64,000 nucleotides of DNA from Candidatus Aenigmatarchaeota archaeon (GCA_043814985.1 JBDRJK010000021.1:7253-71252), one strand, 5' to 3'; shown: positions 5,597 to 52,004, counted from the first letter of the stretch. The notes: generated by a model not told the origin, from the sequence alone. Numbers and translations are program-made.

Positions 5597-8227
5597 TCAA
5601 CTTAAGTACAACAAAAATTCCTCGTACCTAATCATGCCTTCGCTCTCTCCTGCTAATGCTATCGTATATGTTCCTTCAGGTGTTCCTGGTTCCACTTCAA
5701 TTGTCATCATAGAACCGGGCGGCCCTTCAACAGGGTTAGTGTCAAAGCTGACAGTTATTCCTGTTACTTGTGGGTAAATGGTATAGCTAAGGTAAATGGG
5801 CTTTCTGTCAGGGCCCAAATAATCTATTGTTATGAAAGTTTCTAGGGTTTGGGTATCATCGAGGCTCTTGTCTATTTTCACTAATTGCGATTTGACTCCT
5901 TCCTGATTCTCTGCTTTATCAACTGAGAAATACCTCACATAGCTTGTTCCCCCCGACAGGATGAATGTGGAATAATATATTGATTCAGAAGGGTCACACC
6001 AGTCATTATTAGCATAGCAATAAAAAGTTTTATCACAGCCACTAACATCATCCGAGCATTTTAGCGATATGCTGACATCTCTGTTATACCAGCACTGGTC
6101 AAGGCAGGTCTGGTCATTGCACTGTATTGTTGTTATTGGTGGGAAAATGTCAGCACATTTTATATCATAGCTACAAGAGTATGAACCTTCAGTACATCTT
6201 TCAAAGTCCTCGCAGTCGTCATGGAGATTAAATTCATTGGAAACTGTTGCGCCATTGCACAGATAGCTGGAGCCAGAGCAATACCTGTCTTGATAGCTCA
6301 CGTATACGTCATCCCCACAAGCAGTTCCGTCGCGGCACTCATAGACAGCATCGTAATTCTCATCGCAAAGATATGTGTCTTGCCTGTATAAGTCAGTGGG
6401 GCATGTTGAGCTCGAGCCAGTACAGTATTCTGTTAAATCGCAGGTTCCTCTAGAAGCCCTGCATGGAAAATTAGATTCCCTGTAGTTGCAGCCATCACAG
6501 CAAACTCCAGACGAGCATTCGCAGTCACAGCTGGGATCATAGCTACAAGAGGATGAACCTTCAGTACATCTTTCAGTGTCTGAGCAACCATCATAAAACT
6601 GGTAGTTGGTCCAGTTTGTTGCGCCATTGCACAGATAGCTGGAGCCAGAGCAATGTCTCTCATTATACCTCACGGCTACATCATCGCCACACTCAGTTCC
6701 CCAATAACAACTATAGTCAGTCTGATAATAATAATTGCAGATATAGCTGGAAGACCTGAAATTGCCGCTGGTGTCGCAGCATGGTCCAGAGCCTGGTGCG
6801 CAATCATTTTGTGTGATTTGTGTAAAGGTGACAGTCGTTGTATCAGGTTCATAGCCACCTGCATCTGCTGTCACAGTTGCAGTGCCTGCTGTATTAGAGG
6901 TTATTGTCACAGAGTACTTTCCTGTGCTGTCGGCTGTGCCTGATGATCTTGACAGAGTGCCTAGAGTTGTTGAGAAAACTATGTACAATCCTACATTAAC
7001 CGGGTTTGAGTATGCTGTAAGTGTTGATGTTGTTGTACCGTCTGCTGGTACGGAGGATGGTGAAGCAATCAATGTTAATCTAGGTTCTCCTCCAGAACTT
7101 TGACATGTTCCACTAATACAAGTATCAGTTCCAGAACATGTTCCACAGCTTCCACTACAACCATCAGACCCACAATTCTTTCCTACACAGTTGGGTGTAC
7201 AATCAAAATATGCGATAAATGTACCTACCACACCTGCCAATGCGTTGAATGACGGCAAGGGGCTAAAAGTCTGAGTGTAACCGTTTGATGCCCACATATA
7301 ATCTAAAGCATAGCCGGGGTAGTTAGAAGCTGATATTGATACATAGGTGCCAGCAGCAACTGTTATTGTTTTGCTTGTTGATGTGCATTGGCTGTTAAGA
7401 CATATCTGGCCCCAGTTCTGAGGCGAAACCATGATTGTATATGTGGCATCGTCTTCAGCAATAAGATTGCATTCCCCGTTTTGACATTCATATCCATTTG
7501 AACATGTTCCGCAGTTAATCGTCCCTCCGCAACCATTATTCTGAACTCCACATTCGTAACCAAGACTCCAGCACGTGTTAGGACATTCACACTTGCAGTT
7601 TTCATTACAAAAACCATCGCCAACACATAGGTTATCATTTCGTATTGTAGTACCACAGCCACCAGACATGGTACAACCAGATTCACAACATTCACTTCTA
7701 CAATTGCAGAATTCCTCTTCCCAACAGGAACAATAGAAGCTTGGGTCTTTATTGTATCCAATTCCAAAATTTACACAACTATAGTGGCATGTCTCGCCAG
7801 CACAAAAGGGAAAACCATTACAAAGGTTTATATTTTGACCAATACCAGCTACACTATATCCTTCTTGTTCGCATTTGTAATCGCATGGCTGAACAGGACA
7901 TTGTGCCGGACAATTACAGTAATCACAATGAACATCATCCCAGCAGTAACATATTATCCATTCAGAACCAAGACGTTCAGAGCAGTCACTAGGACCAATC
8001 TCATGACAATTATAGCGGCATGTCTCGCCAGTACAATAAGGAAAACCACTACAAGGATTTGGATCTCTAAAACTACATCCTCCATAATCATAACCACTGC
8101 ATGCATCAGTACATTCTGAGGCAATAACCCCCGTTGAAAATAAGAGAAAGATGTTTAAGGATAAAAATAATACAAGGTATTTACATATTGGATTTTTACT
8201 GATATTTATCACCATTGAAACCTTCAT
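5597..8227 (-). CDS. Secreted Cys-rich adhesin-like protein (876 aa) with Big_1, disintegrin-like, internal repeats and a C-terminal Ig-like domain
   Basis: Sec-like signal LVLFLSLNIFLLFSTGVIA; very Cys-rich; ASPSSVPADG...FSTTLGTL...AGTATVTA (Big_1); CCDGCNY...CRASRGTCDLTEYCTGSSSTCPTD (disintegrin-like). Confidence 0.85.
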   Translation of the reverse strand: MKVSMVINISKNPICKYLVLFLSLNIFLLFSTGVIASECTDACSGYDYGGCSFRDPNPCSGFPYCTGETCRYNCHEIGPSDCSERLGSEWIICYCWDDVHCDYCNCPAQCPVQPCDYKCEQEGYSVAGIGQNINLCNGFPFCAGETCHYSCVNFGIGYNKDPSFYCSCWEEEFCNCRSECCESGCTMSGGCGTTIRNDNLCVGDGFCNENCKCECPNTCWSLGYECGVQNNGCGGTINCGTCSNGYECQNGECNLIAEDDATYTIMVSPQNWGQICLNSQCTSTSKTITVAAGTYVSISASNYPGYALDYMWASNGYTQTFSPLPSFNALAGVVGTFIAYFDCTPNCVGKNCGSDGCSGSCGTCSGTDTCISGTCQSSGGEPRLTLIASPSSVPADGTTTSTLTAYSNPVNVGLYIVFSTTLGTLSRSSGTADSTGKYSVTITSNTAGTATVTADAGGYEPDTTTVTFTQITQNDCAPGSGPCCDTSGNFRSSSYICNYYYQTDYSCYWGTECGDDVAVRYNERHCSGSSYLCNGATNWTNYQFYDGCSDTERCTEGSSSCSYDPSCDCECSSGVCCDGCNYRESNFPCRASRGTCDLTEYCTGSSSTCPTDLYRQDTYLCDENYDAVYECRDGTACGDDVYVSYQDRYCSGSSYLCNGATVSNEFNLHDDCEDFERCTEGSYSCSYDIKCADIFPPITTIQCNDQTCLDQCWYNRDVSISLKCSDDVSGCDKTFYCYANNDWCDPSESIYYSTFILSGGTSYVRYFSVDKAENQEGVKSQLVKIDKSLDDTQTLETFITIDYLGPDRKPIYLSYTIYPQVTGITVSFDTNPVEGPPGSMMTIEVEPGTPEGTYTIALAGESEGMIRYEEFLLYLS
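6245..6654. repeat. Intragenic direct repeat with an identical 38-bp core (6245-6282 = 6617-6654), period 372 nt
   Basis: tgttgcgccattgcacagatagctggagccagagcaat occurs twice; peptide repeat CGDDVxV...CSGSSYLCNGAT...ERCTEGSxSCSYD. Confidence 0.9.
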
Positions 8228-9272
8228 TCTTTAGATACATTTCAAATATAATAGAGTCATCTTTGACAATTTTGGTAACCAATATTTTTCCGTCATACCT
8301 GTAAAAATCAAATCTATTAGGATTATCTTCTTGTGAGGTTAAATATTCCAGTTCTGCATCATCTGAAGAAAATGGGAAAACCATTGCTTTGATTAAGGAG
8401 AATATGTTTTCAAAATCTGTTTCTGAAAAAATAATACTGGAAATTCCTGAGTCTAAATCATAATTTATTACGAGGTTTTCTTCCGAACCCTCACAAAAGA
8501 TATTTAGAGAGTATTCATTCTGATACATGCGTATATAATCTAGTCTGCAAATACTCAAAATCTGAAAAGCTATTCTAGCTTTTTCATCAAAAGGGAGTTT
8601 CTCATCGACTATTATTGGGAAAGAATATGATGTTTTGTTCAAATTAAAGTTTAAAATTGTGTCATAGTAATTACAGGTAAGTTTTACAGACGAAAACATC
8701 TCTTCATTATGAACAAATTCATCATAATCATAAGGCGAGCAATTGTAGAATTCCTTTATGTCTTCATGAACAACATCAGTAAACTCTTCATCTCTACCGT
8801 TTTCAAGCTTAAAGTTGTCAACATCAAAATAATATATCTTAACTATTCCATTATCACAGTAAAAGAACAGATTGTTGTTTTTGGAGTAAAGGAAGTCGCA
8901 GTTGTTATTAGTCAAATCATTGAATACACCCGGTTGTTCCCTCAAAAAAGACCAGCCGTTCATGTCACTAATAATATTTCCGTTTTCAAATTCGGCATAG
9001 TATGGTCTGTCATTGCAAATCATCCAGAACTTGTCGCTGTCTAGGCTTAACTCCTCTCTTTTAATGTCGCAGAACTCTAGATCAGCTTCTAATAATTCCA
9101 AAACAGTTTCTCTGCCTAATGAATCTTGAAGGGAACTGTCCTTTGGTTCCCCATACAAATAATTTATTGACAAGAATATCGCAAATACTATTATCAGACT
9201 TATCAACAATGGCACAAAAACATTCAAGTCCAGTTTCAAGGCTCCAGTAGATTTTCTTTTTCTCATGGGCAT
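8196..9272 (-). CDS. Hypothetical membrane-anchored acidic protein (T4P locus)
   Basis: 358-aa ORF; basic N-terminus then one TM helix; overlaps both neighbours. Confidence 0.8.
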   Translation of the reverse strand: MPMRKRKSTGALKLDLNVFVPLLISLIIVFAIFLSINYLYGEPKDSSLQDSLGRETVLELLEADLEFCDIKREELSLDSDKFWMICNDRPYYAEFENGNIISDMNGWSFLREQPGVFNDLTNNNCDFLYSKNNNLFFYCDNGIVKIYYFDVDNFKLENGRDEEFTDVVHEDIKEFYNCSPYDYDEFVHNEEMFSSVKLTCNYYDTILNFNLNKTSYSFPIIVDEKLPFDEKARIAFQILSICRLDYIRMYQNEYSLNIFCEGSEENLVINYDLDSGISSIIFSETDFENIFSLIKAMVFPFSSDDAELEYLTSQEDNPNRFDFYRYDGKILVTKIVKDDSIIFEMYLKNEGFNGDKYQ

Positions 9273-10150
9273 ACCACCTTAAAGGTTACTGAACCAGGGT
9301 CGACTGTTAAACCAAAATCGAATTCAAGCTCATCATCACCTGTTATTTCCTTCTTATACTTGAATCTTAGTTCAACATACTCATAAGGAATTAATGCATT
9401 AATGGAACTAGGTTCCCCTGGTTTCAAAGGTGCCAGGCAATACGCGTCAGAATGAGGACAATAGCCTACAATGGTTATCTCCACAATATTTTCGTCTATG
9501 TTTGCTATCCTGTTGAAATCTAAGCCAACAAATCTGGGGTCCCCGCTTCCTTTCAGATTATACAATTCATTCACAAGAGCTCCAGGATTGCTTAGAATAT
9601 CTTCAAAATGAGAATCCTCCATTATGGCCCTGCCTGCATTAAGCAGTTTGAAGTAATTGGAGTCTATTATAGAATCAATTTTATGGTCAACAGATATTCT
9701 AGCATCAATGCCTTCGTCATAAAAAGAAATGTACCTGCTTCCCCTTACAAAAAATTGCGTCGAGGCATGGTCATTAACGTCTATTTCAGCCTCATCGAAA
9801 TTTACGCTTATGCTTCCCTTTTCATAGGACTTGGGCATGTTCCTCTTTATCCTTCTCACCAGTTCATCTTCTAGGGTTTGGATTTTGGGATAATCTGGTG
9901 TCCAGAAATCCTCGTATTCCAGGCCGCCAGTTTTACCCAGTTCAAAGGCAGCTCTCTGAGAAATGAAATATAAACTCTGGTCAAATGACTTCAAAAGAAG
10001 TTCAGCCTGGTTTGAAAATGATAACAGCTTGCCCTCTACAGTCACTATGTTCCTTTCAACATTGTATCCCATGTTCAGTCTCAGCAAGAACAGACTGGTG
10101 AGTATGAGTGTTATTCCCACGAAAGCATATGCCCAAACCTGACCTTTCAT
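9263..10150 (-). CDS. Pilin-like protein (class III signal-like), 295 aa
   Basis: Start moved to MKG|QVWAYAFVGITLILTSLFLL (ATGA-type overlap with upstream gene). Confidence 0.78.
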   Translation of the reverse strand: MKGQVWAYAFVGITLILTSLFLLRLNMGYNVERNIVTVEGKLLSFSNQAELLLKSFDQSLYFISQRAAFELGKTGGLEYEDFWTPDYPKIQTLEDELVRRIKRNMPKSYEKGSISVNFDEAEIDVNDHASTQFFVRGSRYISFYDEGIDARISVDHKIDSIIDSNYFKLLNAGRAIMEDSHFEDILSNPGALVNELYNLKGSGDPRFVGLDFNRIANIDENIVEITIVGYCPHSDAYCLAPLKPGEPSSINALIPYEYVELRFKYKKEITGDDELEFDFGLTVDPGSVTFKVVCP

Positions 10151-11050: not shown

Positions 11051-11542
11051 TTACACCGATATTGTTTCTGCTTTTGGATATTCAGGGGTTGGGGCACCAA
11101 TAGATAGGAAGCAAGTCCCATCACTTCTCTCTATCTTTTTAACAGTTATTGTTTGCTTCAAGCCTCTCTTGAGCTTTATTTCTTGTTCATATATTTCACA
11201 GTCAGATGCAAATGCAGTTGGCTCTATTGTTGCAAACTTTGCCTTCAGGTAATAGTCCCCAGGAGGAATAATATGGACGTAGTTCACACCATCCTCTTCA
11301 TAAACACTTATAGTGTATGCCTGCCCTGTTGTTTCAGTGCTTGCCACGAACTCTCCTGGTGCGAAACTGCCTATTGACATGCTTGATGTTAGCCAGTTTT
11401 GAAGCAGGATAGGCTCTACGAACATGAGATAATAGAAGGTGTTGCTTGCAATGCCCTCTTGCCCGAACAGGGTTACCAGTATTACTAAGAGAACAATGAC
11501 TTCTGCAACAAATTTTAGAAAATCCTTTGTTATTTCACTCAT
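11051..11542 (-). CDS. Pilin-like/membrane-anchored protein
   Basis: 163 aa, N-terminal hydrophobic helix, in operon. Confidence 0.72.
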   Translation of the reverse strand: MSEITKDFLKFVAEVIVLLVILVTLFGQEGIASNTFYYLMFVEPILLQNWLTSSMSIGSFAPGEFVASTETTGQAYTISVYEEDGVNYVHIIPPGDYYLKAKFATIEPTAFASDCEIYEQEIKLKRGLKQTITVKKIERSDGTCFLSIGAPTPEYPKAETISV

Positions 11543-16107: not shown

Positions 16108-16503
16108 CTATGAGCACTTGTTGTCAGACCCGCAACTGCCCATTATGCAGTCAGCATCTGTCATGCAGCCGCAGAACGGCTGAAAATCCCCAGGATATAC
16201 TGTTATGCATCTTGTGCCGTCTTCTTGGTTTAGGCAATCTTCATGGGTCTTGCAAATCTCCATTTCCCTGTCATATTCACTGAAACGTTCGGGATCATAG
16301 CTGTAATCATTGTCAGCGTTCAAATCAGTGTGACACCCAGGGTCTTCCTTGTCAACCAACATGTCATTATCGTTGTCCCTTCCGTCACTGCATTCCGGAA
16401 TTTTTTCTGACTGATTGCCCATCCAGCTTCCTACCAGCACGGCTAGAAACACTATTAAAATAATGAAAGCCATTAAAACTATAATGTCATTGTCGCCTTT
16501 CAT
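16108..16503 (-). CDS. Pilin-like protein with an Asp-rich putative Ca-binding loop and a small Cys domain
   Basis: MKG|DNDIIVLMAFIILIVFLAVLV; ECSDGRDNDNDMLVDKEDPGC. Confidence 0.78.
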   Translation of the reverse strand: MKGDNDIIVLMAFIILIVFLAVLVGSWMGNQSEKIPECSDGRDNDNDMLVDKEDPGCHTDLNADNDYSYDPERFSEYDREMEICKTHEDCLNQEDGTRCITVYPGDFQPFCGCMTDADCIMGSCGSDNKCS

Positions 16504-32749: not shown

Positions 32750-35386
32750 CTATTTATTTTTAGAGAATCTCATTAGGATTTCTGGCATTGCTAATAGACC
32801 TAGACTGGAGAACAATAACACCTTTACCCAGTCCATCAAGCTTAGCGCAGTCAGATGGAATATTCCTTGGAATAACGGTACATATATTATGACTATTTGC
32901 AGAATAAATGATATCAATACAGCAATTAGTAATTTTTTATTTGTCAGGGGATTTAACCTAAAAACACCCTTTTTTTCAGACCTGCAATTGAATACAAAAA
33001 ACATCTCGAAAAATATTGCAGCACTAAAAGCCATTGTTTGTGCTTTCTCTAAACCGTTTGGTAATTCTAAAATAAAAATGCCAAAGGATGAAGCAAAATC
33101 CAATATTGATGCAAATATTATAAAAGCTAGTGTGCCTGTTATTATTCCTTTTTTAGGGTCTCTTGGAGGTTTTTTCATTACATCAGGATCTTTTGGGTCA
33201 ACACTCAGTGCCAAAGCAGGAAGCCCGTCTGTAATCAAGTTAATCCACAGTATGTGAATAGGTAAATAAGGTAAAATAATAGCCCCTGTTGCGTCAGTGA
33301 GTCCAATTAGCATGGGCACAGTTATCATTGCCAGCTCATCGAAATTGGCTGCCAGCAGGAACCTGACGAATTTTCTAATATTATCATAAATGCCCCTGCC
33401 TTCTTCAACAGCAGAGACTATTGTGGAAAAATTATCATCCATCAAGACCATGTCAGCAGCTTCCTTTGACACGTCAGTTCCCTTTATCCCCATTGCAATA
33501 CCAACATCTGCTTTTTTCAGGGCAGGTGCGTCATTGACACCATCACCTGTCATGGCAACCACATGGCCATTGGACTTTAGTATGTCAACAATTCTTATCT
33601 TATGACTTGGTGATACTCTTGCGAATATCACAGTGTCCTCCACAACTTCCTTTAGCTTTTTATCGTCCATCTTGTCCAGTTGTTCACCCCTTAGGATGTT
33701 TCCTTGCAGACCAACCTGGGAAGCAATTGCTTTTGCTGTTAATTCATGATCGCCTGTTATCATTTTTATTTTGATTCCAGCCCTCTTGCAAAGAGCAATA
33801 GCGCTTTTGGTCTCCTTTCTTGGCGGATCTATCATTGCAACTAGGCCAACAAAAGTCATGTTACTTTCAACTGAGTTTATGGAATATCTCTTTGATAACT
33901 CCTTATAAGAGAAGCCCAATACTCTGAGACCGTTTCCTGCCAACTCATGAACAATCTTTAATATCTTTTCCTTGTCTGCCTTTACCAATTTTTTGTTGAT
34001 GTAGATTTTGTCGCACATACCAAGTATGACTTCTGGAGCACCCTTGGTGTATGCGAAGATATCTCCTCCAATATTGTGGATTGTTGTCATTTTCTTTCTC
34101 TCAGAAGAGAATGGAATCTCATTGATTTTCTTATAATCTTCCTTTATTCCACTCTTTTCTGCCAGAACCTTCAAAGCTCCTTCAGTAGGGTCACCAATCA
34201 CTTCCCACTGCTTTCCCCCCTTCAATATAGAATTATTACACATCGATCCTATCTTCAAAAGAATATCAAGACTTCCTATCCTTCTCGGGTCTATTTTCTT
34301 GTCGTTCAATAGAAAATCTCCCTTTGGATTAAAACCAACTCCAGTAACATCTATGATTTTTCCATTGACCCATATTTTTTTAACTGTCATTTCGTTTGTT
34401 GTCATAGTTCCAGTCTTATCCGCGCAGATAACTGTTGTTGATCCCAAAGCCTCGACTGCAGCCAGTCTTTTTATTACTGAATTCTTTTTCAGCATCCTCT
34501 GGGTTCCTAGAGCAAGGGTTAATGTTATGACAGCCGGGAGTCCTTCTGGGACAGCTGATATTGCCAGACTCAGTGCTGTCATGAACATGTAAAAGGGGTC
34601 TATGTTCCTGACCAATCCAATGGAGAAAATAATTGTGCTTGCTATCAGGACAACCAAGCCCAGCATTTTTCCAAGGCTTTGTAGTTTTATCTGCAGTGGT
34701 GTCGGCTCTTCCCTTTCCTGCACCATGCCTGCTATCTTTCCCATTTCAGTTGACATTCCAGTGGAAATCACAATTCCCATGCCTCTCCCATATGTGACCA
34801 GCGTTCCCATGAATCCCATGTTTTCCATTTCTGTGAGGGAGACATCTTTCAAAGGTTTTGTGTGCTTTGTTGCTGCTACTGATTCACCTGTTAGCATTGA
34901 TTCATCAATTTTCAGGTTCAATGCTTCGAACAATCTTATATCTGCAGGAACCCTGTTTCCTGCCTCAAGAATGACAATGTCTCCTGGGACAATCTGTTCT
35001 ATTGGCACTTCGACCTTTTCCATGTTTCTGACAACAAGGACCTTTGTCACAATAAGTTTTTTCAGAGCCTCAATTGCCTTTTCAGCCTTGTACTCCTGAT
35101 AAAAGCCTAGGATAGCGTTTAATACAAGAATAGCTCCTATTACAATTGCGTCTGTGATTAAACCTAGAACAAGTGATATTGCAGTTGCGAAGAGAAGCAA
35201 AATAACCAGAAAGCTCTTGAACTGCTCCAGTAAAATTATCAGGGATGTTCTCCTTTTCTTGCTCCTAATCTTGTTCATTCCATACTCTCTGAGTCTTAAA
35301 TTGGCTTCAGAACTTTTCAGACCTTTCTCGTTGGTTTTCAATTCCTTGAAGACTTCCTCAGAACTCATTGTATGCCATTTGTTCAT
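32750..35386 (-). CDS. P-type (IIA-like, Ca2+) cation ATPase
   Basis: LTGES, VPEGLP, DKTGT, MTGDGVNDAPALK, LWINLITDG. Confidence 0.95.
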   Translation of the reverse strand: MNKWHTMSSEEVFKELKTNEKGLKSSEANLRLREYGMNKIRSKKRRTSLIILLEQFKSFLVILLLFATAISLVLGLITDAIVIGAILVLNAILGFYQEYKAEKAIEALKKLIVTKVLVVRNMEKVEVPIEQIVPGDIVILEAGNRVPADIRLFEALNLKIDESMLTGESVAATKHTKPLKDVSLTEMENMGFMGTLVTYGRGMGIVISTGMSTEMGKIAGMVQEREEPTPLQIKLQSLGKMLGLVVLIASTIIFSIGLVRNIDPFYMFMTALSLAISAVPEGLPAVITLTLALGTQRMLKKNSVIKRLAAVEALGSTTVICADKTGTMTTNEMTVKKIWVNGKIIDVTGVGFNPKGDFLLNDKKIDPRRIGSLDILLKIGSMCNNSILKGGKQWEVIGDPTEGALKVLAEKSGIKEDYKKINEIPFSSERKKMTTIHNIGGDIFAYTKGAPEVILGMCDKIYINKKLVKADKEKILKIVHELAGNGLRVLGFSYKELSKRYSINSVESNMTFVGLVAMIDPPRKETKSAIALCKRAGIKIKMITGDHELTAKAIASQVGLQGNILRGEQLDKMDDKKLKEVVEDTVIFARVSPSHKIRIVDILKSNGHVVAMTGDGVNDAPALKKADVGIAMGIKGTDVSKEAADMVLMDDNFSTIVSAVEEGRGIYDNIRKFVRFLLAANFDELAMITVPMLIGLTDATGAIILPYLPIHILWINLITDGLPALALSVDPKDPDVMKKPPRDPKKGIITGTLAFIIFASILDFASSFGIFILELPNGLEKAQTMAFSAAIFFEMFFVFNCRSEKKGVFRLNPLTNKKLLIAVLISFILQIVIIYVPLFQGIFHLTALSLMDWVKVLLFSSLGLLAMPEILMRFSKNK

Positions 35387-35462
35387 AAATATTTGTTGAT
35401 TTTCTTGATTTAAAGTTTAACCATCAGAAAATAATATAAGCCGGTTAACAGAACATAAGAAT

Positions 35463-36398
35463 ATGCTGTTCATCAACTTTGTGTATTTTTTGATTGCGTG
35501 CTTTTTCCTGGCTATTGGAGGAAACTTGGTTGTTAGGAGCCTGTCAGAGGTAGCTAGGCATTACCAGATGAGGGAATTCGTTCTCGGTTTTGTCTTGGTC
35601 GCAATATCAACCTCAATACCAGAGCTCTTTGTCGGCATATTCTCTGCTTTGGATAATGTTCCTGCCATTTCCTTCGGTGATGTTATAGGAGCCAACATAG
35701 TCGACCTGACAATAGTGATTGGCTTTGCTGCCTTGTTGGGAAAGAGGGTATTTGTCGAGAGGGAAATAAACAAGGATGACATACTCTATACAACCCTGAT
35801 AGCATTCCTGCCGATTTTGCTGTTTTTCGATCAGCAATTGTCAAGAATAGACGGATTAATACTGTTGTCTGTTTTTGCTTTGTACATTGTTATGCTTGTT
35901 AAACGGAGGAAGCACTTTCATGCCCTAAAGGATGGCATATCAAAGGCGAGGGTATTGTTGGACATAATTGTTTTCATAATAAGCTTGGCTATTCTTTTGG
36001 TGTCTGCCAAGTTCGTTGTCGAGACTGCTGAGATAATAGCTATTGAACTGGCTTTTCCGGAAATCCTTGTTGGTTTGATTATAGTAAGCATAGGGACGAC
36101 CCTGCCAGAGCTTTCATTTGAAGTCAACTCTGTGAGAAAGGGTTTCTGTGGCATGGCTTTAGGAGACTTGCTGGGAAGTGTTGTCATAAACTCCTGCCTT
36201 GTGTTGGGCATTGCATCTCTGATATACCCAATTACTGCAGAGTTCCTGCCCTTTTTAATAGGCTCGATATTCTTAATGGCAATACTGGGGATTTTCGCTG
36301 TTTTCGCTAAAACAGGAAGGGTAATAACAAGAAAAGAGGGCCTCATACTCATCTTATTCTATGTTATGTTTGTGGTAACTAGCATTCTGGCTAGATAG
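35463..36398 (+). CDS. Na+/Ca2+ exchanger (CaCA/YrbG family)
   Basis: Alpha repeats STSIPE...GDVIGAN and GTTLPE...GDLLGS. Confidence 0.92.
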   Translation: MLFINFVYFLIACFFLAIGGNLVVRSLSEVARHYQMREFVLGFVLVAISTSIPELFVGIFSALDNVPAISFGDVIGANIVDLTIVIGFAALLGKRVFVEREINKDDILYTTLIAFLPILLFFDQQLSRIDGLILLSVFALYIVMLVKRRKHFHALKDGISKARVLLDIIVFIISLAILLVSAKFVVETAEIIAIELAFPEILVGLIIVSIGTTLPELSFEVNSVRKGFCGMALGDLLGSVVINSCLVLGIASLIYPITAEFLPFLIGSIFLMAILGIFAVFAKTGRVITRKEGLILILFYVMFVVTSILAR

Positions 36399-36478
36399 CC
36401 TAGTAGTTATTATTCAAACATGTAAGAAACAAAGCTTAAAGCAAAATTATTTTATAGGACATTAACTATTATTATCAA

Positions 36479-39193
36479 ATGATAAAGAAAAAATCCTTGA
36501 GCAATCTGCCCCACTCACAGACTGTTGAAGAGATACTGCAGACATTATCTTCTAACATAAATGGGTTTTCTGAGAAAGAAGCAAAAACTCGCTTAGAAAA
36601 ATTTGGTGTTAATGAAATACCTGAAAAAAAAGCTAGACACCCTGTTTTAATTTTTCTTAAACAATTCCATAGTATTCTGATTTATATTCTTATTATTGCC
36701 GCTGTTATTTCCTCCCTTTCTGGTGATCTAATTGATGTTTACATAATCACTGGTGTTATTTTAATTAATGCCGTAATGGGGTTTGTGCAAGAGCGTAGAG
36801 CTGACCAATCAATCCAAGCATTGAAAAAGATGATCGTACCCCACGCAAAAGTTTATAGGGAAGGAGAATTATTACAAATAGCTGCAAGGGAATTGGTGCC
36901 TGGTGACATTGTCTTATTGGAAGAAGGTGACAAGGTTCCTGCTGATGCAAGACTTCTAGAAATAAAAATTTTTAGGACCGTAGAAGCGTCTTTGACAGGA
37001 GAATCGCTTCCTGTTGAAAAAGACATTAAAGTATTGTCTGAAAGAACTGCTTTGGCTGATTGTAAAAACATGGTTTGGATGGGCACTTTCGTTGCAAGGG
37101 GACAGGCTAAGGCAGTTGTCACTGCAACAGGCATCAATACAGCATTTGGTAAAATAGCCCAAGACATAGAAAAAATAAAAAGAGTAAAGGGGCATTTTAA
37201 AGAAAAGACTGACAAGCTGGCAAAACAAATGGGTATTATTGCAGCTGTTGGCGCGTCAGTAACATTCATTATCGGCTTCTTTATTAGAGGTTTTGAGTTT
37301 TTAGAAATATTCCGTTTTACCTTGGCTTCTCTTGTTTCCGGGATTCCAGAAGGATTGCCCGCGGTATTGGTAATTGTGCTTTCTATTGGTGCACATAGAA
37401 TGGCAAAGAAAAATGCTATCATTAGAACATTGCCATCAACAGAAACACTTGGTGTAGTAACAGTCATTATGACAGACAAGACGGGAACACTTACGGAAAA
37501 TACTATGAATGTGGAAAAAATAATTTTGCCGAATGAAACTGAGATTACAGTGTCTGGAAAGGGCTGGATACCTTCTGGAAGTTTTTTCCAAGAAGAAAAA
37601 ATTATTCATCCTTCAGGAAACCCCTCTTTAGCAAAACTTCTCGAGATTGCTGCTATATCCAGCGATGCTGAGCTTTTAAGAGAAAAAGATCGCTATGAAA
37701 TTATCGGAGACCCAACTGAAGCTGCCCTTACTGTCTTAGCAGAAAAAGCAGGGATAAAAAAAGAAAAAATATTAGAAAAAGTAAAAGAAATAGACGAACT
37801 GCCCTTTAGTCAAGAATTAAGATGTGAGGCATCTCTTTTAATTTTTCCAGAAAAATCTAAAAAGAAAGAAGTTTATGTTGTCGGTGCTCCTGAAGCTATT
37901 CTCAATCATTCCGCATACGTTCTTGAAAACAATAAATGTAAAAAAATGACTAAAAAACAGCGTGAAGATATTTCAGCTCAAGTAGAGCAATTAACAAAAA
38001 AAACAATGAGAGTTCTTGCTTTAGCCTATAAAGAAGTGCCACAACATATAGATGGCTTATCAGAAAATTTAGTTAGTAGACTTGTTTTCGTTGGTATTGT
38101 TGGTATGAAGGATCCCCCAAGGCCAGAAGTGAAAGAAGCTATTGTCAAAGCCAAGAAAGCTGGCATTAGAATTATTATGACAACAGGAGACCATAAAGGC
38201 ACGGCTGTTGCAATTGCCAAAGAAGTTGGTCTTATTGACAAAAAATCAAAAAGCAGATATCCTGAAGCTTTCACAGGCCAAGAATTATCAGAATTGTCAG
38301 AAAAGGAATTTGGAGACACAGTAAAAAATGTTTCTGTATTTGCTCGTCTAACACCAAATATGAAGTTAAGGATTGCTGAAACATTACAAAAACAGGGTCA
38401 TGTTGTAGCAATGACAGGAGATGGTGTGAACGATGCACCTGCCCTGAAAAAAGCAGATGTTGGTATTGCAATGGGGATAATTGGTACTGATGTGTCTAGA
38501 GAATCTAGTGAGATTGTGCTTGCTGATGATAATTTTGCTTCTATTGTTAGTGCAATAGAAGAAGGAAGAATTGTTTTTAAAAATACCCGTCAGGCAAGTT
38601 CTTTCCTTGTCACCACCAGTTTTGCGGAAGATATAGCTATTATAACTACAATGCTTTTCGGTCTGCCTTTGCCTCTGTTGCCCGTTCAGATACTCTGGCT
38701 CAACTTGGTCACAGATGGCGTCTCTGATGTTGCATTGGCTGCTGAACCAGGTCATGGAGATGTCTTGGAGGAAGTGCCGCGAAAATCCAAAGAGGGTATC
38801 TTGTCAAAGGAGATAATACCGTTTCTACTTTTAATGACCTGTATTATGGTCGTTTTTACGCTAGCTATTTTCAATAGTTATCTGCCTCAGGGAGAAGAGA
38901 AGGCGCGAACAGTAGCTTTTGTCGTTATGGCGTTCACCCAACTCTTTAACGTTCTTAACATGCGTTCTCTTAAGAAATCCATTTTCAAGATAGGCTTCTT
39001 TAGCAACAGGTACATTGTCGTATCTCTGCTAATCTCAATCACACTTTTGCTTATGGTGATATATACGCCGTTTTTCCAAACCATATTCCAGTTTGTTCCA
39101 TTGAGCTTTGTGGAATTATTGACGATATTCCTTCTATCGTCCACGGTCTTCTGGTTCGGCGAGCTATACAAATTTATAAAGAAGAAAATTTGA
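36479..39193 (+). CDS. Second P-type (IIA-like) cation ATPase
   Basis: LTGES, IPEGLP, DKTGT, MTGDGVNDAPALK, LWLNLVTDG. Confidence 0.95.
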   Translation: MIKKKSLSNLPHSQTVEEILQTLSSNINGFSEKEAKTRLEKFGVNEIPEKKARHPVLIFLKQFHSILIYILIIAAVISSLSGDLIDVYIITGVILINAVMGFVQERRADQSIQALKKMIVPHAKVYREGELLQIAARELVPGDIVLLEEGDKVPADARLLEIKIFRTVEASLTGESLPVEKDIKVLSERTALADCKNMVWMGTFVARGQAKAVVTATGINTAFGKIAQDIEKIKRVKGHFKEKTDKLAKQMGIIAAVGASVTFIIGFFIRGFEFLEIFRFTLASLVSGIPEGLPAVLVIVLSIGAHRMAKKNAIIRTLPSTETLGVVTVIMTDKTGTLTENTMNVEKIILPNETEITVSGKGWIPSGSFFQEEKIIHPSGNPSLAKLLEIAAISSDAELLREKDRYEIIGDPTEAALTVLAEKAGIKKEKILEKVKEIDELPFSQELRCEASLLIFPEKSKKKEVYVVGAPEAILNHSAYVLENNKCKKMTKKQREDISAQVEQLTKKTMRVLALAYKEVPQHIDGLSENLVSRLVFVGIVGMKDPPRPEVKEAIVKAKKAGIRIIMTTGDHKGTAVAIAKEVGLIDKKSKSRYPEAFTGQELSELSEKEFGDTVKNVSVFARLTPNMKLRIAETLQKQGHVVAMTGDGVNDAPALKKADVGIAMGIIGTDVSRESSEIVLADDNFASIVSAIEEGRIVFKNTRQASSFLVTTSFAEDIAIITTMLFGLPLPLLPVQILWLNLVTDGVSDVALAAEPGHGDVLEEVPRKSKEGILSKEIIPFLLLMTCIMVVFTLAIFNSYLPQGEEKARTVAFVVMAFTQLFNVLNMRSLKKSIFKIGFFSNRYIVVSLLISITLLLMVIYTPFFQTIFQFVPLSFVELLTIFLLSSTVFWFGELYKFIKKKI

Positions 39194-45491: not shown

Positions 45492-45583
45492 TGGTAGCGG
45501 GGGCTGGATTTGAACCAGCGACCTTCGGGTATCTCATCAGAGATTATGAGCCCGACGGGCACTCCTGGCTGCCCTACCCCGCT
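45492..45583 (-). tRNA. Initiator tRNA-Met(CAU) with a 14-nt intron at 37/38 (45531-45544); CCA encoded
   Basis: AGCGGGG acceptor stem with A1-U72, GGG/CCC anticodon stem, CTCATA loop, GGTTCAAATCC T-arm, oligo-T downstream. Confidence 0.95.
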
Positions 45584-47218: not shown

Positions 47219-47476
47219 ATGAAAAATACGAACAAGACAACTATTGTTTATGTGGTAAGCGGGATACTGATAGGCTATATTAGTTTCTTGCTTAACAGCG
47301 AGTTTCTAGCTCTGGGTCTGGCATTTGTATCTTTATTTTTGATTGCGGAAATATTGAAAAAGGCGTTGAAGATAGATTCTAAGTTCAAGTGGTTCTGGTC
47401 CCACGGTGGATGGGTATACCTTTTCATCTGGTTCATAACATGGGTACTAGTCTGGAACCAGCCATTTGTTTTGTGA
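47219..47476 (+). CDS. Small 3-TM membrane protein
   Basis: 85 aa; GGAGG SD; YLFIWFITWVLVWN. Confidence 0.75.
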   Translation: MKNTNKTTIVYVVSGILIGYISFLLNSEFLALGLAFVSLFLIAEILKKALKIDSKFKWFWSHGGWVYLFIWFITWVLVWNQPFVL

Positions 47477-47480
47477 TTTT

Positions 47481-48824
47481 ATGATTGAGAATATTGGTGA
47501 CTGGCAGAGAACACATTATTCCAAGCAGGTCAAGCCGGAAATGGGCAATGAAGAAGTCATTGTGATGGGTTGGGTCAGAGAATTAAGGGACTTGGGTAAA
47601 TTGAAGTTCATCAAGCTGGCTGACAGGGAAGGCTTCATACAGGTTACTGCAAAGGAAGGGGACGTCAAGCCGGATATAATCAATAAAATAGAAGGCTTGG
47701 GAAGGGAGGATGTCATTGCTGTCAAGGGCATTGTAAAGGCAAGCAAGCAGGCTCCCAATGGAATCGAAATAATGCCAGTTGATGTGAGGATTCTTAACAC
47801 TTCTGATTCACCATTGCCTCTAGAGCTGGAGACCAAGAAAACACCTGCTCACATTGATACGAGGATGAACTGGAGATTTTTAGATTTGAGGAAACATGAG
47901 AACAATCTCATATTCAAGATACAGACTGCAATGGAAATGGCCATGAGGGAATTCTGGATCAAGAATGGTTTCATTGAAATTCATTCTCCTAAATTAATGG
48001 GTTCTCAGAGCGAGACAGGAGCAGAGCTGTTCACTGTTGTCTATTTTGACAGGGAAGCGTATCTGGCACAATCGCCCCAGTTCTACAAGCAGCTGGCAAT
48101 GATTGCAGGTTTTGATAGGGTTTTTGAGATAGCTCCTGTTTTCAGGGCCAATCCATCTCATACAGTTAGGCATGACACCGAGTACACTTCTATTGATATG
48201 GAGATGTCTTGGATAAGTTCACATGAGGATGTGATGGCATTTGAGGAAAAGTGGATTACCTATGTGATTGAACAAGTGAAGAAACAGTATGGAGACAAGA
48301 TAAAGGAAACATTTGGTTTTGAATTGGTTGTTCCCAAAATACCTTTCCCAAGAATGACTCTCAAGGAAGCCAAGGATAAAATCAAGAAAACTGGTAAAAA
48401 GGTTTCATACAAAGAGGACCTTTCACCTGAGGAGGAAAGGCTTTTGGGAGAATTGGTAAAGGAAGAGTCCGGTCATGAGTTTGTGTTTGTGACTGAGTTC
48501 CCGTGGAAGATTAAGCCTTTCTATCACATGAGAGACGAGAAGAATCCTGGAGTGACAAAAGGTTTCGACTTACTGTGGAAAGGATTGGAAGTGACCACAG
48601 GCTCTCAGAGAGAGCACAGGTATGACGTGTTGGTTGAGCAGGCAAAGGAGAAGAAGCTTAAGTTGGACAGCATAAAGTCTTATCTGGATTTTTTCAGGTA
48701 TGGGGCGCCTCCACATGGCGGTTTAGGTTTTGGTTTGACAAGGGCTCTTATGACAATGTTTGAAATGAAAAATGTGAGAGAGGTCACTTTCGCTTTCAGA
48801 GACATGGACAGGCTTTATCCTTAG
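47481..48824 (+). CDS. aspS: Aspartyl-tRNA synthetase 1 (probably non-discriminating)
   Basis: RTHYS, RDLG, QAPNGIE, QSPQFYKQ, FRANPSHTVRH, GSQREH, PPHGG. Confidence 0.95.
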   Translation: MIENIGDWQRTHYSKQVKPEMGNEEVIVMGWVRELRDLGKLKFIKLADREGFIQVTAKEGDVKPDIINKIEGLGREDVIAVKGIVKASKQAPNGIEIMPVDVRILNTSDSPLPLELETKKTPAHIDTRMNWRFLDLRKHENNLIFKIQTAMEMAMREFWIKNGFIEIHSPKLMGSQSETGAELFTVVYFDREAYLAQSPQFYKQLAMIAGFDRVFEIAPVFRANPSHTVRHDTEYTSIDMEMSWISSHEDVMAFEEKWITYVIEQVKKQYGDKIKETFGFELVVPKIPFPRMTLKEAKDKIKKTGKKVSYKEDLSPEEERLLGELVKEESGHEFVFVTEFPWKIKPFYHMRDEKNPGVTKGFDLLWKGLEVTTGSQREHRYDVLVEQAKEKKLKLDSIKSYLDFFRYGAPPHGGLGFGLTRALMTMFEMKNVREVTFAFRDMDRLYP

Positions 48825-49274
48825 GTGATTAAGATGAGAGAGTGTATATTTTGCGAAATTGTAAAGGGAAAAAGAGAAAAAAATCACAAGATTCTTGAAA
48901 ATGATAAGCATCTGGCTTTTCTAGATATTTATCCTGTTACTAAGGGCCAAACCTTGGTTATACCTAAGAAGCACTACAAAGGTTTAGGTGTTTTTAGTCT
49001 TACAAGAAATGAATATGAGGATTTGTTTCTCTTCGCTAAAAAGACCGCAAGAAAAATCAAGAAAAAACTCAAACCCAAGTTCATAATTATGGTCGTAGAG
49101 GGCATGATGATTGATCATCTTCACATAAAGCTTTATCCTATATACAAAATACAAAAGAAGTCTGACAACAGGCTTCTAAAGCCTTATCAGCCATATAAAG
49201 GATATTTGATAACCCAGATAGGGCCGAAAGCCAGTGAAAAAAAACTTAAAAGAATAGCCCGCCTTCTTTCCTGA
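48825..49274 (+). CDS. HIT family hydrolase (HxHxK variant)
   Basis: CIFCEI, AFLDIYP, LVIPKKH, HLHIKL. Confidence 0.88.
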   Translation: MIKMRECIFCEIVKGKREKNHKILENDKHLAFLDIYPVTKGQTLVIPKKHYKGLGVFSLTRNEYEDLFLFAKKTARKIKKKLKPKFIIMVVEGMMIDHLHIKLYPIYKIQKKSDNRLLKPYQPYKGYLITQIGPKASEKKLKRIARLLS

Positions 49275-49340
49275 AGAATTTCTATTATATATTTAAAGTT
49301 TACTACTATATTGTAATACATAAATTAGGAGTGTGTTATT

Positions 49341-50687
49341 ATGGTAGAAATTAATTATAATGAAAAACAGATTGAATTGCTTCTAGGAAAGAGAAAACAA
49401 AATGCAGAAGTGACAGAAAGAGATTTTGGTAGCGATGTTGTTGTCGCAGGATACATAAAGAATATAGCAGATCTTGGTAAAAATATGAAGTTTCTAACTT
49501 TGGCAGATGCCTCAGGGGAAATACAACTGACGTTAAAGAAAGGAGTTTATGTTGGAGTTGAGGATGCTAAAATGCTCACCCCTCATACCTTTATTGTTGC
49601 GAAAGGTGAGGCATGTAAAGGAAGGGCTAAAGACGGTCGTGAAGTTCTTGTAAAAGATATTAGTCTTTTGAGCGATGTTGTAACAGAGAAGATTCCAACA
49701 GAGATGAGGACCAGTCTTGACAAGAGATTGGATTACAGGTGGGTGGATTTGAGGAATGAAAAGCACAGGTTCCCTCTTACAATGGTTTCCGAGTTCACAA
49801 GGTATTCAAGGGACTTTTTCAATGAAAACGGCTTCACTGAAATTTTCACGCCAAAGATAGTGGGTACTCCAACTGAGGGTGGAGCAGAGGCGTTCCCTGT
49901 TCTTTATTTTGACAGGGAAGCGTATCTGGCACAATCGCCCCAGTTCTACAAGCAAATGGCTATATGCTCTGGTTTTGACAGGGTTTTTGAGATAGCTCCT
50001 GTTTTCAGGGCCAATCCATCCCACACTACAAGGCATGATACCGAGTACACCTCTTTGGATTTCGAGATAGGGTACATTACATCGCATCAGGATGTAATGA
50101 AAGCCGAAGAGGGTATGCTGAGCCATGTTTTCAAAAACATTAAAGAGAAGTATGGGGATAAAATCAGGAAGAAATTCAAACAGGAGATAGACGTTCCTAA
50201 AAATATACCTCAAATAAGGATGGAGGAAGCTTACGAGATTGTAACAAAGGAAGATGTAGACGAAAAAGGCAGCTTGAGACCATCAGGGGAGAAGGCTGTT
50301 TCTGAACATGTTAAGGAAGCATACGGAAGTGATTTCATCTTTATAACAGATTTCCCTTATGATGCTAGACCTTTTTATCATATGAAGGGTGAAGCTATGA
50401 GGAACGGTAAAGAGACTACGAAGAGCTTTGACCTGATTTACAGAGGTGTAGAGATTACAACAGGCGCTCAGAGGGAACACAGGCACGGAAAATTAACAGC
50501 CCAAGTGGTTGAGAAAGGCTTAAGTACTAATAATCTAAAACAATATCTAGATTTTTTCAAGTACGGAGCACCTCCCCACGGTGGTATCGGGTTGAGCCCT
50601 AGTAGAGTTGTCACGAACATGCTTGATCTCGGGAATGTGAGGGAAGCAACAATGGCTCCGAGGGATCCGAAAAGACTGTTTCCATAG
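49341..50687 (+). CDS. aspS: Aspartyl-tRNA synthetase 2
   Basis: EGGAE, QSPQFYKQ, FRANPSHTTRH, GAQREH, PPHGG. Confidence 0.92.
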   Translation: MVEINYNEKQIELLLGKRKQNAEVTERDFGSDVVVAGYIKNIADLGKNMKFLTLADASGEIQLTLKKGVYVGVEDAKMLTPHTFIVAKGEACKGRAKDGREVLVKDISLLSDVVTEKIPTEMRTSLDKRLDYRWVDLRNEKHRFPLTMVSEFTRYSRDFFNENGFTEIFTPKIVGTPTEGGAEAFPVLYFDREAYLAQSPQFYKQMAICSGFDRVFEIAPVFRANPSHTTRHDTEYTSLDFEIGYITSHQDVMKAEEGMLSHVFKNIKEKYGDKIRKKFKQEIDVPKNIPQIRMEEAYEIVTKEDVDEKGSLRPSGEKAVSEHVKEAYGSDFIFITDFPYDARPFYHMKGEAMRNGKETTKSFDLIYRGVEITTGAQREHRHGKLTAQVVEKGLSTNNLKQYLDFFKYGAPPHGGIGLSPSRVVTNMLDLGNVREATMAPRDPKRLFP

Positions 50688-50696
50688 GTTGTTTAT

Positions 50697-52004
50697 TTGC
50701 TGAATAGAGACTTAATAAAAAATGTTAAAAAACAAGATAAAGAAAAAGACGTTAACGTTTTTGGATGGCTTAAAAACAAAAAGGATTTTGGCAAAATAAT
50801 CATTTTGAGAATAGTTGATTCTTCTGGAGAGATTCGTGCTGTGGCAAAGACCAAAATATTGAAAGAGAACTCTTTTCTTGATATCAAGAAGCTCAAGAAG
50901 GAATCCTGTATAAATGTTATGGGAAATTACGATTCCAAAAAGAAAGAAATCCAGATAAAAGAAATAAAAATTATTGCAGCTGCTACTAAGTCTATATCGC
51001 CCTCCGCAAGGGATGATTTTGATATCTATAATCAGAAATACACAAGTCTTGTCTGCGATAACAGGCACATCTATTTGAGAAACGAGAAAATTGCCACAAT
51101 ACTCAAGATTAGGAGCATGTTCATGGAGGAAATGCGCGATTACTTCCAAAAGAACAATTTCATCAATTTTAGCGCACCGATTTTGACCAACATAACACTT
51201 TATGGCGACAAGACAGCCTTTGATATTGATTTCTGTGGTAAGAAACTCTACCTCACACAATGCACAGCATTCTATCTGGAGTCTGCTATACCGGCTTTCG
51301 AGAAGGTTTATTTCATGTCGCCTTCTTTCAGGAATGAAAAGTCTAAGAGCAGGAGGCATCTTAGCGAATACTGGCACTGCAAAGGAGAAATAGCTTTTTG
51401 TGATTTAGAAGGAATGATGAAGTTTGTAGAGAATATGACATACACTGTCTACAAAAATCTAGTAAAAAACGCAGGAGAGGAGATGAGGAAAATAACCAAA
51501 ATAGATTTTAACAAATTCAAGCCACCTTACAAGTCAATTACCTATGAAAAGGCCGTTGAAGTTCTACAGAATAATGGTTTCAAAATAAAGTTTGGTCAAA
51601 GCATTGGGAGTGACGAAGAAAGATTCTTAGGTGAGAGGATGAAAAAAATGTTTTGGATCAAGTTCCTACCAAGAAAGGTGGAGGCATTCCCCTACAGAAT
51701 CAACCCTTCTGATGAAAGAACAACACTGACGGCAGACCTCTTGTGCAATGAGTCTGGCGAGATATTGGGAACCGCTGAAAAGATATATCAAAAGGAAGAA
51801 TTGGAAAGAAGGATGAGGGAGGATTTCGTTGCACATCCAAAAGAAATTTACAAATGGTACATAGAGCTTAGAGAAATGGGCTTGCCGCCGCATAGTGGTT
51901 TTGGTATGGGTGTGGAAAGAGTCTTGAGAAGTTTTCTTAATCTTAAACATGTAAGGGATGTTATACCTTATCCAAGACTTTATACAAGATTACCTTATCC
52001 TTGA
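50697..52004 (+). CDS. Divergent asparaginyl-tRNA synthetase-like protein
   Basis: OB domain plus motif 2 PSFRNEKSKSRRHLSEYW, motif 3 PHSGFGMGVER, RDVIPYPR. Confidence 0.85.
   Translation: MLNRDLIKNVKKQDKEKDVNVFGWLKNKKDFGKIIILRIVDSSGEIRAVAKTKILKENSFLDIKKLKKESCINVMGNYDSKKKEIQIKEIKIIAAATKSISPSARDDFDIYNQKYTSLVCDNRHIYLRNEKIATILKIRSMFMEEMRDYFQKNNFINFSAPILTNITLYGDKTAFDIDFCGKKLYLTQCTAFYLESAIPAFEKVYFMSPSFRNEKSKSRRHLSEYWHCKGEIAFCDLEGMMKFVENMTYTVYKNLVKNAGEEMRKITKIDFNKFKPPYKSITYEKAVEVLQNNGFKIKFGQSIGSDEERFLGERMKKMFWIKFLPRKVEAFPYRINPSDERTTLTADLLCNESGEILGTAEKIYQKEELERRMREDFVAHPKEIYKWYIELREMGLPPHSGFGMGVERVLRSFLNLKHVRDVIPYPRLYTRLPYP

Follow-up and report, generated by a model that had tools for sequence, protein, structure and literature searches.

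The 64,000-nucleotide stretch of Candidatus Aenigmatarchaeota archaeon analysed here (GCA_043814985.1 JBDRJK010000021.1:7253-71252; hereafter the window) contains a long row of minus-strand genes of an archaeal genome, among them the machinery of a type IV filament. Two proteins of this row are the subject of this report: a large pilin-like protein (p295) and a secreted, adhesin-like protein (p876), with the gene for a third protein (p358) lying between them (Table 1). The C-terminus of p876 is an immunoglobulin (Ig)-like domain without its N-terminal strands A and A', and the C-terminus of p295 is a short tail that corresponds to these two strands. The genes are coupled: from p987 through p876 the intergenic gaps are at most 64 nt, and around the two halves they give way to overlaps of 4 nt (between p295 and the adjoining gene for a 168-aa pilin-like protein, p168), 10 nt (p295/p358) and 32 nt (p358/p876), making up one tightly packed row. 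We consider it probable that a type IV filament operon of DPANN type here encodes a single Ig-like domain as two separate parts, each carried by a different exported protein.

Table 1. Positions in the window of the two partial domains, the proteins that carry them and the neighboring operon genes
Feature	Position	Strand	Basis and remarks
p295, 295 aa, large pilin-like protein	9263-10150	-	Class III signal peptide-like MKG and hydrophobic helix; synteny with L001 and L003
p295 tail, residues 276-295 (EFDFGLTVDPGSVTFKVVCP): orphan Ig strands A and A' with penultimate Cys; proposed donor ("plug")	9266..9325	-	Alignment with fused homologues
p876, 876 aa	5597-8227	-	Open reading frame (ORF); Sec-type secreted, Cys-rich (88 Cys), multidomain, adhesin-like
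p876 signal peptide, ~residues 1-36 (...STGVIA/SEC)	8120..8227	-	By eye and from homologue N-termini
p876 OmpL47-type beta-barrel domain, ~residues 696-786, 7 family-conserved Cys	5870..6142	-	Directly before the partial Ig
p876 C-terminal Ig-like domain, strands B-G only, ~residues 788-876; proposed acceptor ("socket")	5600..5866	-	Hidden Markov model (HMM), hhalign
p358, 358 aa, between the two halves	8196..9272	-	N-terminal membrane anchor, 8 Cys; overlaps neighbors by 10 and 32 nt
Three small pilin-like genes, 168, 132 and 163 aa	10147..11542	-	Immediately upstream of p295; MKG/hydrophobic helices
T2SSF platform protein, 693 aa	20294-22375	-	Pfam and NCBIfam; type IV filament core
T2SSE/FlaI-like ATPase, 743 aa	22376-24607	-	Pfam and NCBIfam; type IV filament core
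Secreted protein, >1851 aa	1-5556	-	Three GH5 cellulase matches and a polysaccharide lyase domain; directly downstream of p876

Complementary partial Ig-like domains on p876 and p295

A first-pass annotation, made from the sequence alone, had proposed that p876 ends in an Ig-like domain which abuts the preceding domain and lacks its usual first strand, and that p295 ends in just such an orphan strand. Both ORFs and both sequences were found as it had described them. The chain of p876 closes with ...VKIDKSLDDTQTLETFITIDYLGPDRKPIYLSY...EEFLLYLS and has neither a pilin helix nor a C-terminal anchor. Upstream of the C-terminal pair of domains, residues 384-470 match Big_1/Invasin_D3 and residues 548-612 give a sub-threshold disintegrin-like match. 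The OmpL47-type domain is recovered by NF047446 on residues 714-785 (E 6.8e-6; 26.5 bits against a cutoff of 40), covering the full model (1-68). Signal peptides in p876 and its relatives were read by eye; those relatives with intact N-termini (P0024, P0031, P0034, P0042 and P0120) all start with a Sec-like one.

The missing strands are evident from profile comparisons. An Ig-domain HMM, built from 59 full-length domains of relatives that were found with the first Ig domain (Ig1) of a fused homologue (see below), has exactly one match in the window, namely p876, and aligns there only with positions 15-98 of 101 (E 4.3e-15); in the same search 169 of 194 domain matches start at position 5 or earlier. 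Likewise, an independent seven-sequence Ig profile (A3), aligned by hhalign to the final 126 residues of p876, matches over columns 15-99 (probability 97%, E 2.8e-11). The consensus of the HMM starts with ...PDFTISASPASQSVAQGES..., in agreement with the first-strand consensus given in the first-pass annotation. No Pfam family reaches threshold on these Ig domains, and PDB sequence searches with the p876 C-terminus, the p295 profile and a further profile (A2) gave nothing useful. Profile A3 weakly matches Ig1 of NCAM in the PDB (2ncm, E 0.0043), whose strands A and A' fall on profile positions 5-20, which supports the strand naming used here.

When the C-terminal 126 residues of p876 were searched against the full library, 508 proteins were returned, most of them through the OmpL47-type part (many with multiple repeats), and the whole query was matched by seven: P0024, P0031, P0034, P0042, P0052 (a fragment), P0120 and P0151. 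Throughout this family of eight, p876 included, an OmpL47-type domain is followed, after a spacer of only 3-8 residues before strand B, by an Ig-like domain starting at HMM position 15-23; the OmpL47-type domain itself is conserved in seven of them, P0052 being the fragment. The A-less Ig domains are 38-56% identical across the eight relatives, and none of the eight chains has an orphan A-A' strand of at least 4 bits elsewhere in cis. In p876, P0031, P0120 and the fragment P0052 the A-less domain is C-terminal. Counts of A-less domains at C-terminal versus internal positions (5/7 vs 11/187) were left unused, as the set had been retrieved with an A-less C-terminal query and includes several divergent or interrupted domains.

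The other half is found at the end of p295. The N-terminus of this protein reads MKG/QVWAYAFVGITLILTSLFLL, with a nearly invariant K2 and a hydrophobic helix that is conserved in 16 homologues; together with the predicted cleavage motif, these features mark it as a putative archaeal class III signal peptide-type pilin. It is probably a tip or minor pilin of the filament operon. Its homologues belong to DPANN-type archaea, one of them labeled Candidatus Anstonellales, and its Atlas neighbors are from Nanobdellota and Woesearchaeota; the nearest Atlas clusters are DPANN hypothetical proteins, with a weak structural likeness to PilX_N/GspI (TM 0.32-0.36 by query). Neither p295 nor p876 has a Pfam or NCBIfam match to PilY1/PilC or GspK/PilX.

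Within the window, the p295 tail is the sole match to the regular expression [DE][FY].[LIVM].[LIVMA].P in a real frame context, and it ranks top among 331 six-frame ORFs when scored with an HMM restricted to A-A' (5.5 bits, the next having 3.9). When profile A3 is compared with the alignment of the p295 family, the single match places residues 276-295 on columns 1-20 (E 0.015, probability 3%). The identification of the tail as A-A' comes from the full-length alignment with fused homologues and not from such standalone scores: in a full-length MAFFT alignment, the tails of the short forms match strands A-A' of the fused Ig1 column for column, and stop at the A'-to-B turn.

Conservation of the tail was a point on which the reading of the first-pass annotation depended, and the outcome is in its favor: the tail is a family feature. 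Twelve of 16 near-length homologues of p295 end in FDFxLxVxP, about eight residues, a Cys and one final residue (a few more in two cases). Two longer ones, P0004 and P0170, retain the tail and its Cys, and continue into Cys-rich repeats without strands B-G. The FDFxLxVxP...C tail is thus present in 14/22 members of the pilin family (12 short and two Cys-rich-extended), kept among relatives of 36-60% overall identity. Counted from the first F, the distance to the Cys is 18 residues in 11 of the 14, 16 in two and 19 in one; the Cys is present in all 14 forms without B-G in cis, and absent from all six forms that continue into the Ig domain. All 12 short forms have one or two conserved Cys pairs, and in each of them the tail Cys is the odd, unpaired one, the third or fifth of the chain. 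The C-termini of P0013 and P0014 are of other kinds; in P0014 inspection by eye shows an acidic Cys motif after the pilin domain instead of the Ig tail. A similar motif occurs in the window in a 131-aa pilin-like protein (16108-16503, minus strand), which matches the acidic double-disulfide repeat NF033662 (E 4.9e-8, below cutoff).

Fused relatives and rearrangement at the A'/B loop

The first-pass annotation had suggested looking for homologues in which the two halves are fused, and this check, too, came out in favor of its reading: six distinct relatives of p295 are of this kind, with the pilin followed by a complete Ig1: P0168 (the gene at locus L001), P0169, P0171, P0172, L003 and P0009. 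In these proteins a second and a third Ig domain come after Ig1, and the C-terminal region is Cys-rich (853-867 aa in L001/P0168, 970 aa in L003; P0009 is cut by a contig end). Strands A-A' of their Ig1 align with the p295 tail, while the B-G portion of p876 is 35% identical to Ig1 and 28% to Ig3 of P0168 by BLASTP; phmmer gave no match between p876 and the fused pilins, whereas BLASTP did. In a FastTree phylogeny of 190 Ig domains computed from the B-G columns only, all eight A-less domains fall in one clade of 19 (Shimodaira-Hasegawa-like support 96), together with 5/5 Ig1 domains of fused pilins, five Ig2/3 domains and one further domain of P0034; with 79 columns, the finer order within the tree is not resolved.

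The kinship extends beyond the split domain. In P0034, residues 686-970 are collinear with residues 370-675 of the fused pilin P0172, a segment that starts at strand B of Ig1 and extends to Ig3 (32% identity, E 2e-29), and the C-terminal domain aligns with P0172 803-1014 (E 6e-17). Thus, the adhesin half corresponds to the fused protein minus the pilin and A-A', for which P0034 substitutes a signal peptide, Cys-rich modules and the OmpL47-type domain. A third arrangement is seen in P0108 (1310 aa), where an A-A' strand (18 bits, residues 885-900) is separated by about 320 aa of YQGS...YKDGY repeats from B-G at 1225-1309. That the domain is interrupted in cis at precisely this place indicates that the A'/B loop tolerates separation. 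P0108 was also considered as a second socket protein and rejected, having its own A-A' strand about 320 aa upstream, i.e. a cis-interrupted domain. These comparisons of sequence support an older evolutionary fission or fusion exactly at the A'/B loop. On the pilin-domain tree the labels "tail and Cys" versus "fused" require three changes, and the fused forms make up one clade in 0/200 bootstrap trees, which suggests multiple independent fission or fusion events.

A different history had been offered as the alternative in the first-pass annotation, namely that an ancestral gene was split by an insertion. As a recent local event, with p358 inserted into one ancestral pilin-adhesin gene, this is extremely improbable. 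The intervening gene does stand out: its GC fraction of 0.323 is the lowest of the operon, against 0.40-0.44 for its neighbors, and no homologue of p358 was found in L001-L003 or among the retrieved proteins, nor any Pfam or NCBIfam match. But the order of the domains is permuted relative to the fused forms, which contradicts a local split: p876 begins with a signal peptide of its own, and some 750 residues precede the partial domain, which is located at its C-terminus and not at its N-terminus. Moreover, a six-frame scan of 7900-9500 with the Ig-HMM found no B-G remnant between the genes, a repeat search around p358 found no flanking repeats or insertion-end-like sequences, and the short pilin is widespread, with twelve other short forms, diverged relatives of p295, ending at the same point. 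As to p358 itself, Atlas returns weak PepSY-like structural neighbors (TM <0.4). Its gene may be an insertion specific to this lineage, or the protein may serve as an assembly factor. Membrane-anchored chaperones have been described for the Pam pili of the Candidate Phyla Radiation (CPR; PMC13278184), and a holdase role of p358 by analogy with them would be speculation.

As to co-occurrence of the two halves, a single plug and a single socket are present in the window, at a distance of two genes. The two fused-pilin loci have only complete Ig domains, and no A-less one, within about 10 kb. A short pilin (P0010) and an adhesin ending in an A-less Ig (P0031) share a source label whose longest contig is 6207 nt.

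Fusion is not restricted to the p295 lineage. At L003 4934-7078 a homologue of the 163-aa pilin of the window (11051-11542) is fused to a complete Ig and further modules (714 aa in all), so that several minor pilins of this lineage occur in both short and adhesin-fused forms. The adjoining L003 7081-9030 is a 649-aa ORF with three near-identical dockerin-like repeats; it lies beside a masked/N stretch and may be an assembly artefact.

A proposed strand-complementation tether and its alternatives

The complementary halves, the conservation of each as a family, the fused homologues, the collinearity of P0034 with a fused pilin and the coupling of the genes in one operon lead to the proposal that strand complementation in trans tethers p876 to the tip pilin of the type IV pilus. 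As far as sequence comparison can tell, this is the best reading, and we hold it likely to be right; the attachment of the adhesin to the pilus through the orphan strand, as the first-pass annotation had proposed it, is thus supported in part. Under this proposal p295 would be a membrane-inserted pilin whose globular domain and tail face outward, and p876 would be exported by the Sec route without an anchor of its own. The p295 tail would then insert into the p876 domain, placing strand A beside B and A' beside G and thereby completing it, and through the completed domain the adhesin, otherwise without an anchor, would be tethered to the capping pilin of the pilus. If bacterial tip complexes are a guide, priming and capping of the filament would fall to the four pilin-like proteins together with the adhesin.

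In the general Ig topology, a domain beginning with strand B has both ends of its chain on one side. The pilin would for this reason enter from the opposite pole, so that adhesin and pilin would leave the joint at opposite poles, as they do in the fused forms, and the joint would be loaded in shear. The docking, its location at the tip and its geometry are inferred, the geometry from this general topology. The conserved Cys of the tail could further act as a covalent lock, as suggested by the strict coincidence between the lack of B-G in cis and the presence of the Cys. Odd numbers of Cys are found in three exported operon proteins: p168 (1), p295 (3) and mature p876 (87).

A number of observations weigh against this proposal, and several of them favor an alternative in which the two features are functionally unrelated: the OmpL47-type domain and the A-less Ig would be a self-sufficient pair, the barrel or its final strand shielding the edge otherwise taken by strand A, while the tail would work inside the pilin tip complex as a C-terminal beta-strand, in cis or between pilins, in a manner like GspK/XcpX, perhaps disulfide-linked to another minor pilin. 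An A-less Ig follows the OmpL47-type domain in 8/8 family members, and no case of a complete Ig of the family following it was found in 172 proteins; given this constant association, the OmpL47-type domain could replace strand A in cis. The junction is internal, and not terminal, in four of the eight. Further, the p295 tail and the linker of p876 both fall on profile columns 15-21, so that part of A' may be filled in cis. The disulfide lock to the adhesin is unsupported by the parity of Cys counts, which is mixed in the mature adhesins (87, 97, 69 and 51 are odd, 98 and 94 even), and parity was dropped as evidence for it; the single Cys of p168 could pair with the tail Cys. There is also precedent, in that the large tip pilin of type II secretion systems and of Com/Tad systems gives its own C-terminal strand to the tip complex (PMC12918778).

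Yet functional unrelatedness, which we judge unlikely, leaves three regularities unexplained: the homology of the tail to an A-A' that fused relatives complete in cis, the start of the adhesin family exactly at strand B of the same Ig subtype, and the restriction of the tail Cys to forms without B-G (14/14, against 0/6 of the others). Nor is the single Cys of p168 conserved: the L001 counterpart has two Cys and that of L003 one, though the pilins at both loci are fused and without the tail Cys.

The remaining points against trans complementation concern the tail and the phylogenetic and genomic coverage. By itself the likeness of the p295 tail to A-A' is not significant, 20 columns being too short; a single clade of fused forms is not rejected by the approximately unbiased test (p 0.113); and the co-location of plug and socket is verified for this window only, the pairing of P0010 with P0031 being circumstantial. 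The low profile score of the tail, the existence of fused forms and the A'/B loop being a rearrangement hot spot could also be accommodated if both elements were evolutionary leftovers with no joint function, the tail being what is left of a fused pilin after truncation and the A-less Ig a decayed or degenerate domain. This we regard as improbable: the motif, length and Cys of the tail persist in 14 relatives despite their divergence, the A-less Ig is likewise kept across eight, no pseudogene remnants lie between the genes, and the same protein is found on two contigs.

If trans complementation is accepted, a broader and distinctly more tentative generalization can be considered, which at present seems to us rather doubtful: in DPANN-type archaea any secreted protein with the OmpL47-type domain and A-less Ig might clip onto the two-strand, Cys-bearing plug of a tip pilin, perhaps with a disulfide lock, such that adhesin or enzyme cargo would be swappable with the pilus unchanged, and lineages would have alternated repeatedly between the split form and covalent fusions, each time at A'/B.

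Known attachment systems, significance and genomic setting

The closest parallels come from bacteria, where strand addition of PilC/PilY1 adhesins to the minor pilins PilK/PilX, with GspK and CpaL as cis versions, was reported in 2026 (Ellison et al., PMC12918778/PMC13533445); the attachment of a Sec-exported adhesin to a tip minor pilin by strand addition is also described by Yount et al. (PMC13711793). As in PilC/PilY1-PilK, a large Sec-exported non-pilin adhesin is encoded beside minor pilins, a short terminal beta-strand is proposed to complete the sheet of a partner, and relatives have the strand in cis (GspK and CpaL there, the fused pilins here). The differences are equally clear: the sequences point to a reversed polarity, with the pilin donating and the adhesin accepting; the completed unit would be an Ig-like domain outside the pilin fold rather than the pilin sheet; and the donor comprises two strands, A and A' (~18 residues, as against 6-10), with a conserved terminal Cys, in an archaeon. 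Pfam and NCBIfam also showed no sequence homology to PilY1 or PilK.

Ig-like domains lacking an edge strand, which is provided by another polypeptide, are typical of donor-strand filaments: chaperone-usher pili, the Pam pili of CPR (PMC13278184) and, among archaea, threads (PMC9715654), cannulae (PMC12518558) and Taf pili (PMC12337348). Those filaments polymerize identical or similar subunits, which usually lack the C-terminal G strand, whereas the present case would be a single heterotypic joint for cargo on a type IV filament, with the N-terminal A/A' missing. Unlike the chaperone-usher operons, the one studied here has a type IV filament ATPase and platform instead, and no PapD-like chaperone or usher was detected among 14 operon proteins with Pfam and NCBIfam. 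The type V pili (FimA/Mfa1) share the polarity proposed here, in that a C-terminal donor replaces an N-terminal ("anchor") strand, through protease-mediated strand exchange (PMC13655056); there, a protease first frees the acceptor strand of lipoproteins which form a homopolymer, and no homology to them was found here.

Searches of openly accessible publications yielded no split Ig domain that joins an adhesin to a type IV filament, and no such joint in archaea. A survey of archaeal type IV filament loci notes adhesin-like neighbors and gives no attachment mechanism, the word "strand" occurring 0 times (PMC13705601). Modular type IV pilins are known from Streptococcus sanguinis PilB/PilC (PMC8179133, PMC9934059), and P0168, P0169, P0171, P0172 and L003 resemble them as pilins with C-terminal adhesin modules, while p295 differs in being unfused and retaining the first two strands of the first module. 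Finally, the secreted proteins CofJ and TcpF bind the type IVb tip minor pilins CofB and TcpB, respectively (PMC6048534, PMC9565799), and resemble the proposed arrangement in that a protein encoded in the operon and exported by Sec is joined to a tip minor pilin by a short, flexible segment at one of its ends. They depart from it in that the N-terminal segment of the secreted protein binds the lectin-type domain of the pilin trimer, and no split domain is involved.

To our knowledge, how type IV pili of archaea carry adhesins is essentially unknown, and the question matters most for ultrasmall episymbiotic DPANN lineages, which have to hold on to hosts or substrates. If the Ig-like domain does reassemble in trans, strand addition at the tip would be shared by Bacteria and Archaea, with opposite polarity, and a general plug-and-socket scheme, if true, would give type IV filaments their first heterotypic split-Ig joint, a mirror image of PilY1-PilK. 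Two practical consequences would follow: the 18-residue tag and the ~90-residue domain would make up a compact natural protein-ligation pair, and the combination of a pilin ending in FDFxLxVxP...C with a secreted OmpL47-type/A-less Ig protein would provide a signature for pilus cargo in metagenomes.

In the wider operon, after the ATPase and platform genes come several Cys-rich/pilin-like genes, an 852-aa protein and the three small pilin-like proteins; the row continues with p295, p358, p876 and the >1851-aa secreted protein. The small pilin-like genes, probably minor pilins, are spaced by -4, -4 and 2 nt, and their order is kept beside the p295 homologue in L001 and L003. Hence four pilin-like genes are followed by p358 and the Sec-type p876, a layout of minor pilins and an adjacent non-pilin exported adhesin together with type IV filament machinery. 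With a protein bearing GH5 and polysaccharide lyase domains as the next gene downstream (its C-terminus lies beyond the window end), the pilus may serve attachment to polysaccharide surfaces. A scan for promoters and terminators used bacterial-type models and is uninformative for an archaeon.

Elsewhere the window encodes TYW2/Trm5 methyltransferases, a geranylgeranyl reductase and SMC/ScpAB. On the plus strand, 47466-52004 has three tandem class II aminoacyl-tRNA synthetase genes, two of which are paralogues of non-discriminating AspRS (NF003483, 546 and 453 bits), the third being AsnRS-like (319 bits, the cutoff being 414). The sole tRNA of the window (45492-45583, minus strand, 92 nt; Rfam tRNA 52.7 bits) was assigned a four-base anticodon, "cata", by ARAGORN and is probably an intron-containing tRNA(CAU). 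At 32750-39193, a Na/Ca exchanger gene lies between the genes of two P-type cation ATPases (878 and 904 aa), which are divergently oriented.

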